A stretch of DNA of 64,000 bases from Patescibacteria group bacterium (GCA_034658935.1 JAYEGE010000008.1:3400-67399); one strand, 5' to 3'; positions 20,478-58,022 are shown, numbered from the stretch's first letter. The notes: generated from the sequence alone by a model not told the origin. Program-made: numbers and translations.

Positions 20478-20852
20478 AGGTTAGTCCCGCCTCTTCGGCG
20501 TACCCATACGTTTTCTACTGCTTCGATAGGGTGGCACTCAGTTACCTACGGCGATGGCCTCTTTGTAGCGGTGGCATATGATGGCACCAATAGCGCGATG
20601 ACTTCACCTGACGGCATTACTTGGACAGCTCGTGCGACCGCGGAAGTAAATTTTTGGTACAGTGTTACCTACGGCAATGGCACCTTCGTGGCAACGGCTG
20701 GTTCTGGCACCAACCGTGTCATGACCTCAGGAAAAGCCGATCTCTACGACAATCCACACGATAATATCTACCAAGGTGGTATGTCCATCATGGGCGGTAA
20801 CGTCGGCATGGGAACAACCACTGACATTCCACGAGGCTCAACCTCGTGGTAA
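20478..20852 (+). pseudogene. 5'-truncated fragment of a repeat protein (WxSVTYGNGxFVA tandem repeats)
   Basis: The open frame starts right after a stop, with no ATG or RBS. It contains GWHSVTYGDGLFVAVAYDG...ITWTARATAEVNFWYSVTYGNGTFVATAGSG. The ORF track gives it a GTG start at 20571. It sits between tRNA-Gly and the IS-like element. Confidence 0.4.
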
Positions 20853-21583
20853 GATAGGGTTATGTCTAGGCAGATTGAGTTCTCGGTTGACGAATTTTAT
20901 CATCTCTATAATCGCGGTAATGATAAACGCGATATTTTTTTAAGCTCGGCCGACAGGCGTCGCTTTACTGCTTTATTATATCTCTCCAACTCTTGCCACT
21001 CCTTCCACTTCGAGGAACTAAAAAATGCCCCATTTGATTTTGATCGTGGGGCGGCTCTGGTCGATATCGGGGCCTATTGTTTAATGACCAACCATTACCA
21101 CTTGTTAGTCCGAGAACGTCAAGAAAATGGTATCAGTCAATTTATGCATCGTCTGTCCACTGGCTACACCATGTATTTTAACAAGAGGTGGCAACGTCGC
21201 GGTTCGTTATTCGAAGGTCGTTTCCGCGCCAACCATGCCGGTGAGGACAGGTACCTTCATTATTTATTTGCCTATATTCATCTTAATCCGGTCAAAATGA
21301 TTCAAGCGGATTGGCGGGTGATTGGTTTGAAAGACAAAGCATCGGCCAAAGATTTTCTCGGCCAATATTTATACTCGAGTTATCAAGATTGTCTTGGTTT
21401 GAAGCGTGAGAGTGGCAAACTGCTTGCTCGAGAGGCTTTTCCTGACTATTTCTCCGAATCGAATGAGTTTGATAGTTTTTTATCTGATTGGTTGAATTAC
21501 CATGACCACGAGGTTGAGCCTCGTGGGGAGAGGGGGCTAAAGTGACTTGACCTTTTAAGATTCCACGAGGCTCAACCTCGTGG
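20829..21583 (+). mobile_element. IS200/IS605-like mini-element 1 (Y1/HUH transposase gene bounded by palindrome ccacgagg-ctcaa-cctcgtgg)
   Basis: Identical hairpins at 20829-20849 and 21563-21583, both within the direct repeat attccacgaggctcaacctcgtggt(a/t)aag. An inverted copy lies at 21506-21526. Total length 755 bp. Confidence 0.65.
20862..21545 (+). CDS. Y1 HUH transposase (IS200-like / RAYT-like)
   Basis: CLMTNHYHLLV (HUH motif) and YLFAYIHLNPVK (catalytic Tyr motif). Length 227 aa. Paralogous to 43120.. and 57321.. Confidence 0.7.
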   Translation: MSRQIEFSVDEFYHLYNRGNDKRDIFLSSADRRRFTALLYLSNSCHSFHFEELKNAPFDFDRGAALVDIGAYCLMTNHYHLLVRERQENGISQFMHRLSTGYTMYFNKRWQRRGSLFEGRFRANHAGEDRYLHYLFAYIHLNPVKMIQADWRVIGLKDKASAKDFLGQYLYSSYQDCLGLKRESGKLLAREAFPDYFSESNEFDSFLSDWLNYHDHEVEPRGERGLK

Positions 21584-35135: not shown

Positions 35136-36416
35136 CTATTGGCCCAGGCGGAGATTGCCCTTAGCGACAAGGGAAGCCCCGATGTTGCATCGGGGTTCTT
35201 CGCTGTTTAAGGCTCTAAAATAGCCTGCGGCGGCGATCATGGTGGCATTATCGGTTGCCAGGGTGACGTCGGGGAAGAGTACTTTAATTGAGCTATTTTG
35301 GCCCTCTAGGGCCTGTCCCAAAGCTTGCTTGAGGCTTTTGTTGGCCATGACTCCACCGGCGGCAATAAAGGTTTTTGGCCCGTGTTTCTCGGCCGCTTTA
35401 AGGGTTTTGTGGACCAAGACGTCAATTACTGCTTGCTGAAATTCAGCCGCGATGGCCGCCTTGGTGGTTTGATCCAGCTCTTCTGCTCCGCCGAGTTTTT
35501 TGACCAAATAAAGTACCGCCGTTTTGAGCCCTGAAAAGGAAAAATCAAAATCCTTAGAATTAATCATCGGCCTCGGCAGCCCCCACTTGCACTTGGACAT
35601 TGAATGTCCAAGTGGCCCATTCTGACCTGGACATTCAATGTCCAGGTGGTTCTTAGCTAGTTTAGAAATTTCTGGTCCGCCCGGGTAGGGCAGGTCGAGG
35701 ATGCGAGCTACCTTGTCGAAGGCTTCACCGGCGGCATCATCGCGGGTCTGGCCGATAATTTCGTAATCAAGCCAATCGCGCATCAGTACCAACTCCGTAT
35801 GCCCCCCACTTACTATCAACCCCAAAACAGGAAACTCTATTTTTTTGGACTTTGGACTTCGCAATTTGAATTTCCTGTCAGTTATCAGAACTGACAGCAA
35901 GTGTCCTTCTAAGTGATTGATGGGCACCAACGGTTTGCCCCAAGCGAGAGCAAGGGCTTTGGCCGCGTTGATTCCCACCCATAGGGCTGGTTCTAGTCCG
36001 GGGCCTTCAGTGACAGCGATGACGTCAATATCTGACACCTCATTGGCGTCGAGAAAAGCCAGCAGTTTTTCAGCCAACTCTGGCTCACGTTCTAAAATCT
36101 CTTTAATTTCTTCCCGTATTTCTTTCTCAAGTTTGTTGGCCCCGTTTTCTTTTTTTGAACCCCGTCTCGCCGTCGGGCAGGTTTGAACTTTGAACTTTGA
36201 CATTTCTAGTGCCCTCTTCAGTAGGGGCACTAGGCGTTTAGCGTGTTCGCGTTTGGCCAGCATGGGCACCACACCACCGTAGAGGGTGTGTAAGTCTACT
36301 TGCGAATGGACGGCTTCGGCTAGAACTTCAAAAACAGGCCGCTCGAAGCCGCCTTTAGCTGACACTATACTAACCGCTGTCTCGTCGCAGCTTGTTTCAA
36401 TCGCGAGTATTTTCAT
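35136..36416 (-). CDS. tsaD: tRNA N6-adenosine threonylcarbamoyltransferase TsaD, carrying three insertions
   Basis: MKILAIETSCDETAVSIV, HLEGHLLS, VSGGHTELV and DFSFSGLKT are all present. At 426 aa it is longer than the roughly 340 aa typical. Confidence 0.85.
   Translation of the reverse strand: MKILAIETSCDETAVSIVSAKGGFERPVFEVLAEAVHSQVDLHTLYGGVVPMLAKREHAKRLVPLLKRALEMSKFKVQTCPTARRGSKKENGANKLEKEIREEIKEILEREPELAEKLLAFLDANEVSDIDVIAVTEGPGLEPALWVGINAAKALALAWGKPLVPINHLEGHLLSVLITDRKFKLRSPKSKKIEFPVLGLIVSGGHTELVLMRDWLDYEIIGQTRDDAAGEAFDKVARILDLPYPGGPEISKLAKNHLDIECPGQNGPLGHSMSKCKWGLPRPMINSKDFDFSFSGLKTAVLYLVKKLGGAEELDQTTKAAIAAEFQQAVIDVLVHKTLKAAEKHGPKTFIAAGGVMANKSLKQALGQALEGQNSSIKVLFPDVTLATDNATMIAAAGYFRALNSEEPRCNIGASLVAKGNLRLGQ
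35585..35646. repeat. pair of perfect palindromes (25 nt cacttggacattgaatgtccaagtg and 21 nt cctggacattcaatgtccagg) inserted in-frame within tsaD
   Basis: Seen directly in the sequence. Together they encode the extra peptide HLDIECPGQNGPLGHSMSKCK, which is absent from canonical TsaD. Confidence 0.75.
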
Positions 36417-41739: not shown

Positions 41740-43044
41740 CTATTTTATTAGTTTAATCTTTGCTCCCAATTTCTTGAGTCGATTGGCGAGATCCTCATAG
41801 CCCCGATTGATTGAGTAGATATTGCGGAGGATGGATGTGCCCTTGGCGGCCAACATCCCAATAAGTATCAAGGCGGCTGGTCTTAGGGCTGGCGGGCAGA
41901 TGATTTCAGCGGGACGGAGAGCCGTTGGCCCTTTGATATAGACGCGGTAGGGGTCAGCCAAGATAATATCTGCTCCGAGTTTGGTCAATTCCATGTAGTA
42001 AATGGCGCGGTTCTCGTAGACCCAATCATGAATTAAAGTGGCGCCATTAGCTTGGGTGGCGATGGGGACAAAGAAGGGGAGATTATCGATATTGATTCCT
42101 GGGAAAGGTAAAGGGTGGATCTTCTCCTCTAAGGCCTTGAGTTTGGAAACTTTGGTGCTGATATCAACTAATTTGGCGAAGCCGTTGTCGCTGAGATAGG
42201 GCTTAGACAGGCTGTAGAGGAAACCCATTTTCTTCAGTTTCAGCAGTTCTAGTTCTAAGAAATTTATTGGACAACGCTTGATATTGATCTCTGAATTAGT
42301 GGTAGCGGCAATGGCCAAGAAGAGCATTGATTCAATCGGGTCTTCACTAAGGGTAAATTCGATGTTGCGGTTTATCTCTTTTTGCCCCGACACACTGATG
42401 GTGCTAGTGCCCAGGCCTCCCACTTTACAACCAAGAGCCAAGAGGAAGTGGCCCAAGTCCTGGACCATGTAATTAGCGGTGGCAAATTTAATGAAGGTGG
42501 TGCCTGGCAAACCGGCAGCAGCCATCATGGCGTTTTCAGTAACAGTATCGCCGGCCTCGTAAAGAACTATTTCTGACGCTTTTAATTTTTTGGCACTAAC
42601 TTCGTGGCGGTCGTCTTTGGAGATTATTTTTACTCCCAGGTTTTCTAGGGCGTAGAGATGTGGTCGGACACTGCGTGCGCCAAGCTTGCAGCCGCCAGGG
42701 TGGGGAAGAGTGAAAGATTGTTCCCAATGGATGAGGGGGCCGAGGAACATGAGGATACTTCGTGTTTTGGTGGCGGCCTCTTGGTCAAGCCTACTGAGTT
42801 TTAATTTCTTGGGAGGATTAATAATCAGATTGTCTCCTTTCCAATTGATTCTAACTCCGATACTTTTCAAGACTTCAATTAGCCTATTGACCTCCTCGAT
42901 ATGAGGGACCCGCTTGAGGGTGGTGGTGCCGTGGTTTAAGAGTGAGGCGCAGAGTAAAGCCACGGCCGAGTTTTTTGCCGTTTTAGTTACCACGGTTCCT
43001 GAGAGTTTTTGCCCCCCTTCAATTTGTAGATTTAAAGTATCCAT
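41740..43044 (-). CDS. murA: UDP-N-acetylglucosamine 1-carboxyvinyltransferase
   Basis: MDTLNLQIEGGQKLSGTVVTKTAKNSAVALLCASLL shows the MurA N-terminus and EPSP-synthase fold. Length 434 aa. Confidence 0.85.
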   Translation of the reverse strand: MDTLNLQIEGGQKLSGTVVTKTAKNSAVALLCASLLNHGTTTLKRVPHIEEVNRLIEVLKSIGVRINWKGDNLIINPPKKLKLSRLDQEAATKTRSILMFLGPLIHWEQSFTLPHPGGCKLGARSVRPHLYALENLGVKIISKDDRHEVSAKKLKASEIVLYEAGDTVTENAMMAAAGLPGTTFIKFATANYMVQDLGHFLLALGCKVGGLGTSTISVSGQKEINRNIEFTLSEDPIESMLFLAIAATTNSEINIKRCPINFLELELLKLKKMGFLYSLSKPYLSDNGFAKLVDISTKVSKLKALEEKIHPLPFPGINIDNLPFFVPIATQANGATLIHDWVYENRAIYYMELTKLGADIILADPYRVYIKGPTALRPAEIICPPALRPAALILIGMLAAKGTSILRNIYSINRGYEDLANRLKKLGAKIKLIK

Positions 43045-43071: not shown

Positions 43072-43825
43072 TGTGCAACACTTAGTGTTGCACAAATGAG
43101 CTGAGCTTACTAAACTGTAGTGGATATGCGTCGGATCAAAATCAGTCCAGGAGAATGTTACCATCTTTATAATAGAGGCAATAATAAGCAGAACATATTC
43201 CGTGATAATCGTGATCGAGCCCGCCTCCTCTTCCTTTTGATAGGTTTGCAATCCGAACTATCTTTCAAAAATATCAGTCGATTAGTTTCAGCTTTAACTA
43301 AAAGACCAAAACTTATCTTGAATGCTCGAGTTGTCTCTGAGGTTAGTGCAGCTCGTTACGTTGATCTAATTAGTTTTGTCTTAATGCCCAACCATTTTCA
43401 TTTAATTGTTTTTGAACGCAAAGAAGGTGGTATTGCTAAATACATGCAACGAGCGCTCAACGCCTATACAAAATATTTTAATACTCGGTATAAAAAAATG
43501 GGCATGTATTTGGGGGGACATACCAAGCCGTTCATATCGAAGACAATGATCAGCTTCTTTATGCTTCTGCCTATCTCCACAGAAATGCTCACCAATTACC
43601 AGTTTGGACTGGTCGCTCGGCGGAGTATCCTTGGTCAAGTTATAGTGATTACGTCGGAAATAATCGGTGGGGGGAGCTTTTAAACCGGCGAATGATTATG
43701 GAACAATTTGTCGACGGTAACGAATACCGACAGTGGGTTGAGACCAGTAGTGCCAAGGACCAAGATTGGGAATTTCAAGAGGGGAACTAAATTGTGCAAC
43801 ACTGTGCAACACTTAGTGTTGCACA
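43072..43825 (+). mobile_element. IS200/IS605-like mini-element 2 (palindrome tgtgcaacac-tta-gtgttgcaca at both ends)
   Basis: Hairpins at 43072-43094 and 43803-43825, plus an extra half-copy at 43793-43802. Total length 754 bp. Confidence 0.65.
43120..43790 (+). pseudogene. Y1 HUH transposase paralog, frameshifted
   Basis: The N-terminal part (CYHLYNRGNNKQNIF...LMPNHFHLIV) is in one frame. The C-terminal part (...LLYASAYLHRNAHQLPVWTGRSAEYPWSSY...) is in another. The switch falls at the A7/G6 homopolymers around 43500-43520. Confidence 0.6.
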
Positions 43826-43829
43826 GAAA

Positions 43830-44762
43830 CTATTTTGTTAGGTGTAAAAAGCTGTAGAGGTCCTCGAGGGCCTTAACGGCATCGCCGGCGGCAATATTGT
43901 TTTGGTGATAACGTCCGTCCGTGCAGTCGCCGGCCGCCCAGATGCCAGTGATCGAAGTTCGCTGAGTGCGTGGGTCGACGATGATTTGATCATTTTGGTT
44001 CAATTCAAGCAAATCTTTAGCGAAATAGGTAGCCGGCACCAGGCCGATTTCGACGAAGACACCTCCAGTCTTTAATTCGTGAGCTTTTCCCGTTATCGTG
44101 TCTTTATAAGTCAATGATTCGATGAATTGGCCACCCTTAAATTCAGTGACCTCAGCATTGGTAATGATTTTAAATTTTGGATCCTTTTTGACTTTCTCAA
44201 TTGTGATCTTGTCTGCTCTGAATTTTTCACTGCGGTTCAATAAGGTTACGCTCTTGCAATAAGCTAGGAGCTGGGCCGCTGATTCAAAGGCAGCATTGCC
44301 GCCACCAATTACCACCACATCCTTGCCAGCAAAAAGGGGGCCGTCGCACGAAGCGCAATAGGTAATACCTTTTTGATCAAATTCTTTTGCTCCGGGGGCG
44401 GTCAGGCGGCGTCTATCGGCGCCGGTCGCGATTAAGACGGTTTTGGTGTTGAATTGTTCGCCGCTGTCAATCTCCACCGTGAATTGGTTGTTGCTTTGAG
44501 CGATCTTTTGCACCTTGTGTCCGAACATCACTTTCAAATCTGGCCCCTCGTAAGATGTTAAGTGTTCTTTAAGGCTAATGGCCAATTCTGTTCCAGAGAT
44601 TTTTTTAGTCCCTACCCAGTTTTGGATATCGGTTGAGACTGCAGATTGCCCACCCCATTTAAAAGCAATAGAGAGTGTTTTTAGTTTTTTTCGTGCGGCG
44701 TAGATGCCGGCAGCAGCCCCACCTGGGCCGCCGCCAATGACGATTAAATCATAAGTATCCAT
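43830..44762 (-). CDS. trxB: thioredoxin-disulfide reductase
   Basis: DLIVIGGGPGGAAAGIYAAR (FAD binding), CASCDG redox motif and VVVIGGGNAAFE (NADPH binding). Confidence 0.85.
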   Translation of the reverse strand: MDTYDLIVIGGGPGGAAAGIYAARKKLKTLSIAFKWGGQSAVSTDIQNWVGTKKISGTELAISLKEHLTSYEGPDLKVMFGHKVQKIAQSNNQFTVEIDSGEQFNTKTVLIATGADRRRLTAPGAKEFDQKGITYCASCDGPLFAGKDVVVIGGGNAAFESAAQLLAYCKSVTLLNRSEKFRADKITIEKVKKDPKFKIITNAEVTEFKGGQFIESLTYKDTITGKAHELKTGGVFVEIGLVPATYFAKDLLELNQNDQIIVDPRTQRTSITGIWAAGDCTDGRYHQNNIAAGDAVKALEDLYSFLHLTK

Positions 44763-57228: not shown

Positions 57229-58022
57229 CACTGTCAAGGTCCGACCTTGACAGTGAAGTTATCCCCCTAAAACAGGGGGTATATCTTTGGCAAGGTCCGA
57301 CCTTGGGGTAGAATTGACCAATGACTAGGAGGTTTAAGTTTGCTCCTGGAGAGTATTACCATATTTATAATCGAGGCAATGATCGCCGCAGTATTTTCCT
57401 ATCTGGCAAAGACCGTGATCGCTTTCTCGCTCTGCTTTACGTTTGCAATAGTGGCGAGGTTCTCCATCTGAGTGATTACCCCCAAACCTCCCTGCTGAAA
57501 TTGCTGAGTCTGCCTAGGTCTTCAGTATTGGCAGATATCGGTGCCTATTGTTTGATGCCAAACCATTTCCACTTATTGGTACGGGAGAACGAGGAGGGTG
57601 GCATTAGCCGCTTGATGCAGAAATTACTGACTGCTTACACCATGTATTTTAATCGTAAGCATCAACACACCGGCTCTTTGTTTGAGGGTCGCTTTCGAGC
57701 CAGACACGTTAGCGACGATCGACATTTGCAGTATCTCTTCGCCTATATTCATCTCAATCCTGTTAAGGTTAGAGACCCTGACAATTGGGAGAAAAAAACT
57801 ATTCTCGATACGGATGAAGCGGTACGTTTTTTGAATACCTACCCGTACTCTAGTTTTCTCGATTATCTCGGTCGGAATAGGGGAGAGGGGGCAATCATAA
57901 ACCCGTCGGCTTTCCCAGAGTATTTTTCGGTGCCGTCTGATTTCTCCGATTTTGTACAGGATTGGATGAGTTTTGACGAAGAGGAGGATCTCACCACTGT
58001 CAAGGTCGGACCTTGACAGTGA
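57229..58022 (+). mobile_element. IS200/IS605-like mini-element 3 (palindrome cactgtcaaggtc-c/g-gaccttgacagtg at both ends)
   Basis: Hairpins at 57229-57255 and 57996-58022 lie within 40-bp direct repeats. An extra partial hairpin is at 57291-57305. Total length 794 bp. Confidence 0.65.
57321..58016 (+). CDS. Y1 HUH transposase (IS200-like / RAYT-like)
   Basis: CLMPNHFHLLV (HUH motif) and YLFAYIHLNPVK (Tyr motif). Length 231 aa. About 60% similar to the 20862 copy. Confidence 0.7.
   Translation: MTRRFKFAPGEYYHIYNRGNDRRSIFLSGKDRDRFLALLYVCNSGEVLHLSDYPQTSLLKLLSLPRSSVLADIGAYCLMPNHFHLLVRENEEGGISRLMQKLLTAYTMYFNRKHQHTGSLFEGRFRARHVSDDRHLQYLFAYIHLNPVKVRDPDNWEKKTILDTDEAVRFLNTYPYSSFLDYLGRNRGEGAIINPSAFPEYFSVPSDFSDFVQDWMSFDEEEDLTTVKVGP

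Follow-up and report, generated by a model that had tools for sequence, protein, structure and literature searches.

What kind of element came to lie between trxB and murA in a Patescibacteria genome, and does it still encode a working enzyme? The question is raised by a 64,000-nucleotide stretch from a Patescibacteria group bacterium (GCA_034658935.1 JAYEGE010000008.1:3400-67399), here called the window, which at 43072-43825 carries a unit, E2, made up of a transposase gene between two copies of one palindrome. An earlier note, made from the sequence, had taken E2 for an IS200/IS605-like element with a transposase that was either a pseudogene or prone to slippage. The analysis reported here points instead, in our judgement with good probability, to a member of a large Patescibacteria-specific branch of class-2 Y1/HUH transposases that resemble the REP-associated tyrosine transposases (RAYTs; REP, repetitive extragenic palindrome). 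The unit is arranged like a REPtron and appears to have been inactivated recently, and its hairpin chemistry is proposed by analogy.

Anatomy of the unit

Unit E2 measures 754 bp and, as had been described, carries an identical 23-bp perfect palindrome, TGTGCAACAC-TTA-GTGTTGCACA, at both ends. The 10-mer TGTGCAACAC is unique to E2 within the window, where perfect palindromes with stems of at least 9 bp number 24, against 0-4 in shuffled sequence. Folded as single-stranded DNA, the two ends of E2 gave energies of -11 to -14 kcal/mol (z = -2.6 to -4.3). The flanking copies are in direct orientation, an orientation that depends on one central base. The extra half-repeat reported at the right end is real, and through it a second pairing register becomes possible there. 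The left palindrome is separated from the murA start codon by 27 bp and from the downstream transposase ATG by 31 nt; the right palindrome, with 4 bp between it and the stop codon of trxB, resembles a terminator for the transposase gene (Table 1).

A candidate -10 box, TAAACT, was picked out by eye in the 31 nt that separate the left palindrome from the ATG; it would yield a leaderless or near-leaderless transposase mRNA, and in the nearest homologues TATAGT or TATGAT stands at the corresponding position, 6 nt before the ATG. A two-hexamer promoter scan found no match in this gap, and an Rfam search over the unit returned nothing at E <= 1. The right arm TGTTGCACA (43085-43094 and 43816-43825) agrees with the DnaA-box consensus TT[AT]TNCACA at 8 of 9 positions, which may be coincidence; a DnaA-C-like helix-turn-helix (HTH) domain is borne by some proteins of transposase subclass 2.1 (PMC6006769).

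Table 1. Features of unit E2, its neighbouring genes and the two paralogous units, in window coordinates.
Feature	Position	Strand	Remarks
Left palindrome	43072-43094		11-bp arms around a central T; single-stranded DNA -11 kcal/mol, z = -3.1
Candidate -10 box TAAACT	43111-43116	+	in the 31-nt gap between left palindrome and ATG
Transposase gene, part 1 (frame 1)	43126-43497	+	N-terminal motif YHLYNRGN; HUH motif NHFH
A7 tract, sole frameshift site	43492-43498	+	A8 (AAA AAA AAT) joins frames 1 and 3: ..RYKK-NGHVFGG..
Transposase gene, part 2 (frame 3)	43497-43790	+	NGHVFGG, AYLHRN (Tyr152 when repaired), YPWSSY; stop TAA 43788-43790
Extra tandem copy of left arm TGTGCAACAC	43793-43802		abuts right palindrome directly; alternative hairpin register
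Right palindrome	43803-43825		same as left; 12-bp arms if 43802-43826 is counted; terminator-like match on + strand
murA	41740-43044	-	neighbour at left palindrome
trxB-like gene	43830-44762	-	neighbour at right palindrome
Unit E1	20829-21583	+	intact 227-aa Y1 gene, 20862-21545
Unit E3	57229-58021	+	intact 231-aa Y1 gene, 57321-58016

The transposase and its family

Adding one A to the A7 run of the transposase gene yields a continuous 223-aa protein, repaired E2, which aligns end to end with intact homologues of about 220 aa. Repaired E2 and both window paralogues pass the Pfam cut-off for Y1_Tnp (PF01797, 23 bits), with 31.7 bits for E2 and 36.2 and 38.7 bits for the others. To that extent the label IS200/IS605-like was sound, since this is the same Y1/HUH superfamily, but the branch was wrong: the tyrosine motif is of the RAYT type, Y-x-x-x-N, and the closest matches are to a RAYT. 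A profile of the family compared with the PDB gave its best sequence match to 4ER8, the E. coli TnpA-REP (E = 0.003), ahead of ISDra2 TnpA. An AlphaFold2 model of repaired E2 (pLDDT 89, pTM 0.87) likewise found 4ER8 as its best fold match (E = 2e-6, target TM 0.68), followed by ISDra2 and IS608 TnpA; the structures matched were 4ER8, 2XMA and 2VJV. In the model, NHFH (residues 91-94) lies on a strand and Tyr152 in a helix (143-159), two motifs that are in different frames in the gene as sequenced. The modelled C-terminus has short helices only, and Pfam detected Y1_Tnp and no HTH domain.

The family motifs NH[FY]H, FQ/FG, Y-x-H-x-N(P) and an SS tail match those of class 2 / subclass 2.1, given as NH[YF]H, FQ, Y[IV]HLNP and SS in the proximal C-terminal tail (Quentin et al. 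2018, PMC6006769, Table 1). IS200 is placed in subclass 1.1, with DH[VI]H, Y[IV]ENQ and a length of 152 aa (PMC6006769). The tyrosine motif has the consensus YIHRNP across the family and reads YIHLNP in E1 and E3; in E2 and its closest relatives it is YLHRNA or YVHRNC, the N retained and the P lost. By sequence, motifs and predicted fold, the E2 protein is a Y1/HUH transposase closer to RAYTs than to IS200 TnpA.

Similarity searches returned 13,831 clusters (at 50% identity) with E <= 1e-3, 3,434 of them with E <= 1e-10, and all named matches were Patescibacteria. The searchable literature held nothing relevant on the E2 palindrome or on REP/RAYT systems in Patescibacteria, and this large RAYT-related family has apparently not been described before.

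Pairing of palindrome and transposase

Two intact paralogues, E1 and E3, lie in the window, each 34-35% identical to E2. The palindrome of E2 had been noted to differ from that of another element in the window, and in fact each of the three units has its own. The E1 palindrome, CCACGAGG-CTCAA-CCTCGTGG, has copies at 20829, 21506 (inverted, within the 3' end of the reading frame) and 21563, and the E3 palindrome, CACTGTCAAGGTC-C/G-GACCTTGACAGTG, stands at 57229 and 57995, with a degenerate copy at 57288. Both genes end inside their own 3' palindromes, the E3 stop codon falling in the right arm of the copy at 57995. The E1 and E3 enzymes, with palindromes of another sequence, are unlikely to act on the E2 palindrome.

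The same association was found in genes collected without regard to palindromes. Eighty metagenome loci (L089-L168) were fetched by protein similarity alone, 70 of them with enough flanking DNA for a palindrome test, and in half of these (35 of 70) one palindrome core stood both upstream and downstream of the gene; 21 also had a copy within the gene, at a fixed place near residue 55-60. The nearest homologues obtained in this way (62-66% identical) have the E2 palindrome on both sides, 24-31 nt before the ATG. At their 3' ends the palindrome loop TAA is the stop codon (..DTVQH*), and in E2 the stop comes just ahead of the extra arm; in a third homologue the palindrome copies are degenerate. 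The E2 palindrome flanks homologues of 44-66% identity in other genomes, belonging to other phylum-level lineages.

From clade to clade the palindromes change in sequence but remain perfect: arms are TGTnCAAnAC-like in the E2 clade, of the form ..AAGGT(T/C) around a one-base centre in the E3 clade, and of the form ..AGG around a five-base loop in the E1 clade. Similarity between arms followed similarity between proteins (Spearman 0.31, a value reached by 1 of 2000 permutations), so that protein clade and palindrome type are paired. A gene between two copies of its cognate short perfect palindrome is the arrangement of a REPtron.

The peptide FVKHRVFNI is conserved in the family because an internal palindrome copy is translated in frame; it is the translation of an internal TGTTAAACAC-CGA-GTGTTTAACA, a variant of the E2 palindrome. 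Internal in-frame palindromes were seen in most E2-clade genes (L004 3666-3692, L028 3741-3769, and many of the metagenome loci about 160-190 nt into the gene), and in E2 and its nearest relatives this copy has degenerated.

Loop orientation, considered as a strand marker, was the same at both ends in six of seven units and varied between genomes relative to the gene; no conclusion is drawn from it because only one central base sets it. The nearest homologue has been given a gene call (P0001, 298 aa; L086 271-486) that is an annotation artefact: it starts in an upstream integrase-like fragment (..ELVEIDVKHVP..) and reads through the left palindrome (..CATLSVAQ..), the unit in L086 adjoining the remnant of another mobile element. 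A 32-bp direct repeat around the unit in L077 was considered as a general target duplication and rejected, being composed of repeated gene 3' ends.

The palindrome as a dispersed repeat

An exact scan for TGTGCAACAC-NNN-GTGTTGCACA in one genome per species (596 Gb) found 89 copies, in 78 stretches from 51 genomes, where about one would be expected by chance. The genomes are all Patescibacteria except for one bin labelled Firestonebacteria. Copies paired at a distance of 696-743 bp around an E2-clade gene account for only about 10 loci; the rest are solo, with up to 6-7 exact copies per genome, and most are away from any transposase gene. Pairs of copies from one genome had the same loop type in 64 of 81 cases, compared with 24 expected (0 of 10,000 shuffles), and copies therefore multiply within genomes. 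Half copies like that at the right end of E2 recur near 9 of the 89 palindromes (0.18 expected), one of them (L052) with the same tandem arm as E2, which argues that the half-repeat is a recurrent by-product of whatever acts on the hairpins.

The flanks of 88 copies (in L002-L079) are biased, A-rich on the 5' side and T-rich on the 3' side. Complementarity between flanks extends the arms by at least 3 bp in 27 of the 88, against about 1.5 expected, with sequence particular to each locus (for example gccgacaa / ttgtcggc). Either the core seems to lie midway in hairpins that were already present, or an inverted flank seems to arise.

Many of the solo copies are found in frame within housekeeping genes, including uvrA (L032), lepA (L067), tsaD (L066), mnmA (L048), rsmI (L059/L003) and dprA (L031), with further in-frame copies in L021/L040 and L005/L050/L030/L073; the peptides they encode are of the forms CATxGVAQ, VQHxVLH and CNTxCCT. 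In lepA the 23-mer (L067, 3534-3556) spans 8 codons and opens no gap against homologues that are 72-76% identical, and DNA identity to these homologues is 9-11 of 23 positions in the palindrome segment versus 30-31 of 40 in the flanks. In this one case, judging by the alignment, the palindrome is a replacement without change of length.

Several in-gene copies occupy orthologous positions in different species, with the loop sometimes flipped. The tsaD gene of the window itself (35136-36416, minus strand) contains two related perfect palindromes at 35590-35647, CACTTGGACATT-g-AATGTCCAAGTG and ACCTGGACATT-c-AATGTCCAGGT, 10 nt apart, in frame and with opposite central bases (peptide ..NHLDIECPGQNGPLGHSMSKCKWG..), where L066 TsaD has unrelated sequence. 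It is a REP-like doublet in an essential gene, and a matching transposase gene was not seen in the window.

The insertion site

The gene order hisS-ybeY-ftsA-ftsZ-trxB-murA is kept in relatives, and in two of them (L084 and L085, with TrxB 70% identical) the trxB-murA spacer is only 21 bp. In the window trxB is followed after 4 bp by the 754-bp unit and, 27 bp further on, by murA. Comparison with these short spacers identifies E2 as an insertion between murA and trxB, as had been proposed, and the added DNA corresponds, give or take about 10 bp, to the stretch from one palindrome to the other. A putative extended -10-like element of murA, TGTTAGAAT, seven bases before its ATG, would have been retained. 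No very close relative was found that could provide an empty site from the same species, the nearest TrxB being 75% identical.

Other relatives have unrelated small genes in this spacer, and the spot therefore seems to collect insertions: L080/L081 (5156-5725) carry a PaaX_M-like gene of 185-189 aa on the opposite strand, and L082/L083 an open reading frame of 125-145 aa.

Weighing the identification

Several results weigh against the RAYT-like assignment or limit its reach. The three paralogues score 33.4, 37.5 and 51.1 bits with the NCBIfam model for REP_Tyr_transpos (NF047646), all short of the 80-bit cut-off. The chemistry proposed for binding and cleavage is drawn from distant relatives, identity to 4ER8 being 12%. 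There is no conserved target or cleavage motif beside the hairpins in 7 complete units or 88 copies, and neither the GT[AG]G guide tetranucleotide nor any other conserved tetranucleotide beside the 88 copies. The window, 64 kb of the source genome, contains no solo copy of the E2 palindrome, whose spread is seen in other genomes. The relatives with empty sites share only 70% TrxB identity and so place the ends of the insertion only approximately. The part of the gene downstream of the frameshift is undecayed, which would also fit slippage expression or a sequencing error.

A classic autonomous IS200/IS605 insertion sequence would read the same anatomy differently: the hairpins would be its ends, the whole unit would move by single-strand peel-and-paste, and solo hairpins would be remnants of excision or decay. 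The Y1_Tnp domain, the fact that the inserted DNA runs nearly exactly from hairpin to hairpin relative to the empty site, and the unrelated surroundings of the nearest homologues, often found on 1.3-kb contigs (approximate length), all agree with it. We nevertheless consider this distinctly unlikely. The protein has about 220 aa and Y-x-x-x-N rather than Y-x-x-x-Q, with TnpA-REP as its closest solved relative; the ends are identical perfect palindromes that lack a conserved flanking cleavage or target motif; and the three window copies, instead of being near-identical, are 34-35% identical and have different hairpins. Solo hairpins, moreover, far exceed gene-carrying units and share genome-specific loops.

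The broken reading frame

The transposase most likely starts at ATG 43126, although the open reading frame listing begins at GTG 43120. Left uncorrected, frame 1 ends at a stop at 43681-43683, giving a product of 185/187 aa without the catalytic tyrosine; the NCBI and Logan gene calls are this 185-aa product (P0011), and the truncated form is carried by only two contigs. A tblastn search with the repaired protein showed the homologous reading shifting to frame 3 over 43494-43787, and that frame does encode the catalytic-tyrosine block noticed earlier (AYLHRN, YPWSSY). The frame switch had been assigned to an A7/G6 run. The A7 tract is the sole site of the shift; the G6 run (43512-43517) codes for the conserved FGG in frame and needs no correction. 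The repaired protein keeps all invariant columns (YH..NRGN, NHFH, GH.F.G, AY.HRN, YPWSSY), and, compared with the four nearest homologues, it is 59-64% identical upstream of the shift and 61-66% identical downstream, where the sequence shows no decay.

Frameshifts were absent from all 80 protein-fetched loci and from about 16 further homologous genes in the species-genome and nearest-homologue loci, some 96 in total with the closest homologues included. Codons at the site differ among the closest relatives (for example CGA CAC GAG AAA CAC), and the A-run is not conserved. With all of these genes in one frame and no conservation of the slippery context among them, the break is most likely a recent loss-of-function mutation in which one A was lost from a mutable A8 tract, now A7. 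In the model the break falls between the HUH strand and the tyrosine helix, inside the catalytic domain and not at a domain boundary. The encoded 185-aa product ends after the HUH half and, on this account, is predicted to be incapable of catalysing cleavage, leaving the E2 copy inactive. Of the two options put forward earlier, then, a frameshifted gene stands and designed slippage finds no support.

A sequencing or assembly artefact, with A8 and an intact gene in the real genome, seems improbable. It would account for a single-base change in a homopolymer ahead of an undecayed frame. The Logan assembly of SRR26901924, however, is 100% identical to the window over 15.3 kb, A7 run included, so the NCBI metagenome-assembled genome and the Logan assembly share the A7, though both may derive from the same reads. 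Elsewhere in the window, runs of A7-A8, T7, C8 and G7-G8 within large genes, among them A8 in gyrA, C8 in hisS and T7 in trxB, all leave the frame intact, and homopolymer errors are therefore not general in the assembly. An intact allele was sought in metagenomes with a pattern across the tract allowing a variable gap, with 0 matches, and a set of 5.8 billion proteins held no near-identical intact protein, the best full-length match being 66% identical.

Still less probable, and very unlikely in our view, is that the A7 tract serves as a functional recoding or phase-variable site, at which RNA polymerase slippage (+A) or a -1 ribosomal shift on A AAA AAA would make a low level of full-length enzyme, the short product acting as a regulator. 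Poly-A tracts are known slippage sites in insertion sequences and in endosymbiont genes, a -1 shift on AAA AAA reproduces the homologous reading ..YKK-NGH.., and beyond the site an open frame of 97 codons is conserved as well as the part before it. On the other side, an A7 run is short for efficient transcriptional slippage, each of the roughly 96 homologous genes is in one frame, the A-run is not kept at the site, and the break divides the catalytic domain between HUH and tyrosine. A 10-bp pairing (43438-47 / 43502-11), the sole one nearby, was tried as a frameshift stimulator and set aside, as it straddles the site and is at chance level.

Possible mechanism

That the palindromes are ordinary terminators or regulatory hairpins of neighbouring genes, with no tie to the transposase, can hardly be right: the right palindrome is terminator-like and lies 4 bp after trxB, and many solo copies have A-rich 5' and T-rich 3' flanks, but the identical 23-mer brackets both the E2 gene and its 44-66% identical homologues in other lineages, palindrome type co-varies with protein clade, and copies also occur in frame within coding genes.

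For the REPtron-like unit favoured here, a mechanism may be proposed from what is known of E. coli TnpA-REP and of IS608 and ISDra2 TnpA (PMC6006769, together with general knowledge). The intact enzyme, as a dimer, would bind the palindrome folded into a hairpin where DNA is single-stranded, as at a replication fork. With the help of an HUH-bound metal, its tyrosine would then cut beside the hairpin and become joined to the DNA through a 5'-phosphotyrosine, after which strands would be rejoined, whereby hairpins, and perhaps the whole unit, would be moved or copied. A perfect stem is the same on both strands, a possible reason for the loop having no fixed orientation with respect to the gene. 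In E2 the A7 tract would split the HUH half from the tyrosine half, making the unit a relic unable to move, save where rare slippage brought the frame back. The two palindromes of E2 are probably still active as hairpins, and the right one is placed where it could terminate the two convergent genes.

A bolder proposal, which we regard as doubtful, is that the palindromes are distinct REP-like elements, the RAYT-like enzymes overwriting stretches of equal length, essential genes included, by templated short-patch replacement. Enzyme and palindrome would co-diverge into hundreds of specificities, and E2 would be the dead driver of one of them. If true, spread by overwriting would differ from cut-and-paste transposition and from the insertion assumed for REPs and REPINs.

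Significance

The broken E2 gene carries little weight in itself, being one recently inactivated transposase gene; the interest lies at the level of the family. Patescibacteria genomes are about 1 Mb, yet this 64-kb window has three diverged RAYT-like genes, each with a private palindrome. For the question of how RAYTs generate and spread REPs, the family offers short, perfect and easily recognised palindromes, many independent protein-palindrome pairs for mapping specificity, and copies in conserved genes whose ancestral sequence can be reconstructed. For annotation, gene callers and curators of metagenome-assembled genomes should expect in-frame palindromes (tsaD, lepA, uvrA) and hairpins that bear stop codons.

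Comparison with known systems

The closest parallel is with RAYT/TnpA-REP proteins and their REPs (REPtrons; E. coli 4ER8). Shared features are the Y1/HUH fold and Y-x-x-x-N(P) motif, a gene bracketed by its own palindrome, diverged paralogues within a genome that each have their own palindrome family, solo palindromes scattered and amplified within genomes, and palindrome copies in frame inside the transposase gene and unrelated genes. Such in-frame copies have been reported for subclass 2.4 (PMC6006769). There are differences too. The E2 family lacks a GT[AG]G guide at the hairpin's 5' foot, as is also the case for subclass 2.6 and class 3 (Quentin et al., PMC6006769), and it falls below the NCBIfam equivalog cut-off. 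E2 palindromes are short (23 bp) and perfect, whereas REPs are imperfect; they reach up to 6-7 exact copies per scanned species genome, many intragenic, compared with tens to hundreds of mostly extragenic REPs; the flanking copies of E2 are direct, not inverted; and the hosts are Patescibacteria, which lie outside the cited surveys.

Subclass 2.1 (Bertels group 1; 'TIRYT') shares the motif set and a length of about 220-240 aa. It is reported to be without REP-like sequences and to have terminal inverted repeats GGGG[AT][CG]A[CG] and a C-terminal HTH (PMC6006769), in contrast to the hairpin palindromes of the E2 family, in which no C-terminal HTH was detected.

The IS200/IS605 TnpA proteins (IS608, ISDra2, IS200) have in common with E2 the HUH/Y1 superfamily, the Pfam domain, hairpin signals and probably a single-stranded DNA mechanism. 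They are proteins of about 130-150 aa with Y-x-x-x-Q, compared with Y-L-H-R-N and 223 aa, including N- and C-terminal additions, in E2. IS200 elements have two different imperfect subterminal hairpins, with conserved cleavage and target tetra- or pentanucleotides and no target duplication, in place of identical perfect palindromes, and occur as multiple near-identical copies, often with tnpB, neither of which is seen in the window, whose three copies are 34-35% identical.

Rickettsia palindromic elements are similar in that palindromic repeats lie within housekeeping genes and leave the frame unbroken, and REP insertions in genes were noted by Di Nocera et al. 2013, as cited in PMC6006769. The LepA palindrome (L067) differs from such in-gene repeats in that it replaces 8 native codons and is not an added segment.

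Set against these systems, E2 departs from two canonical RAYT/REP features, the GT[AG]G guide and the NCBIfam score, and from the defining features of IS200/IS605; it is, in our view, a decayed member of a system working like REP/RAYT, in the class-2 branch of the TnpA-Y1 transposases.

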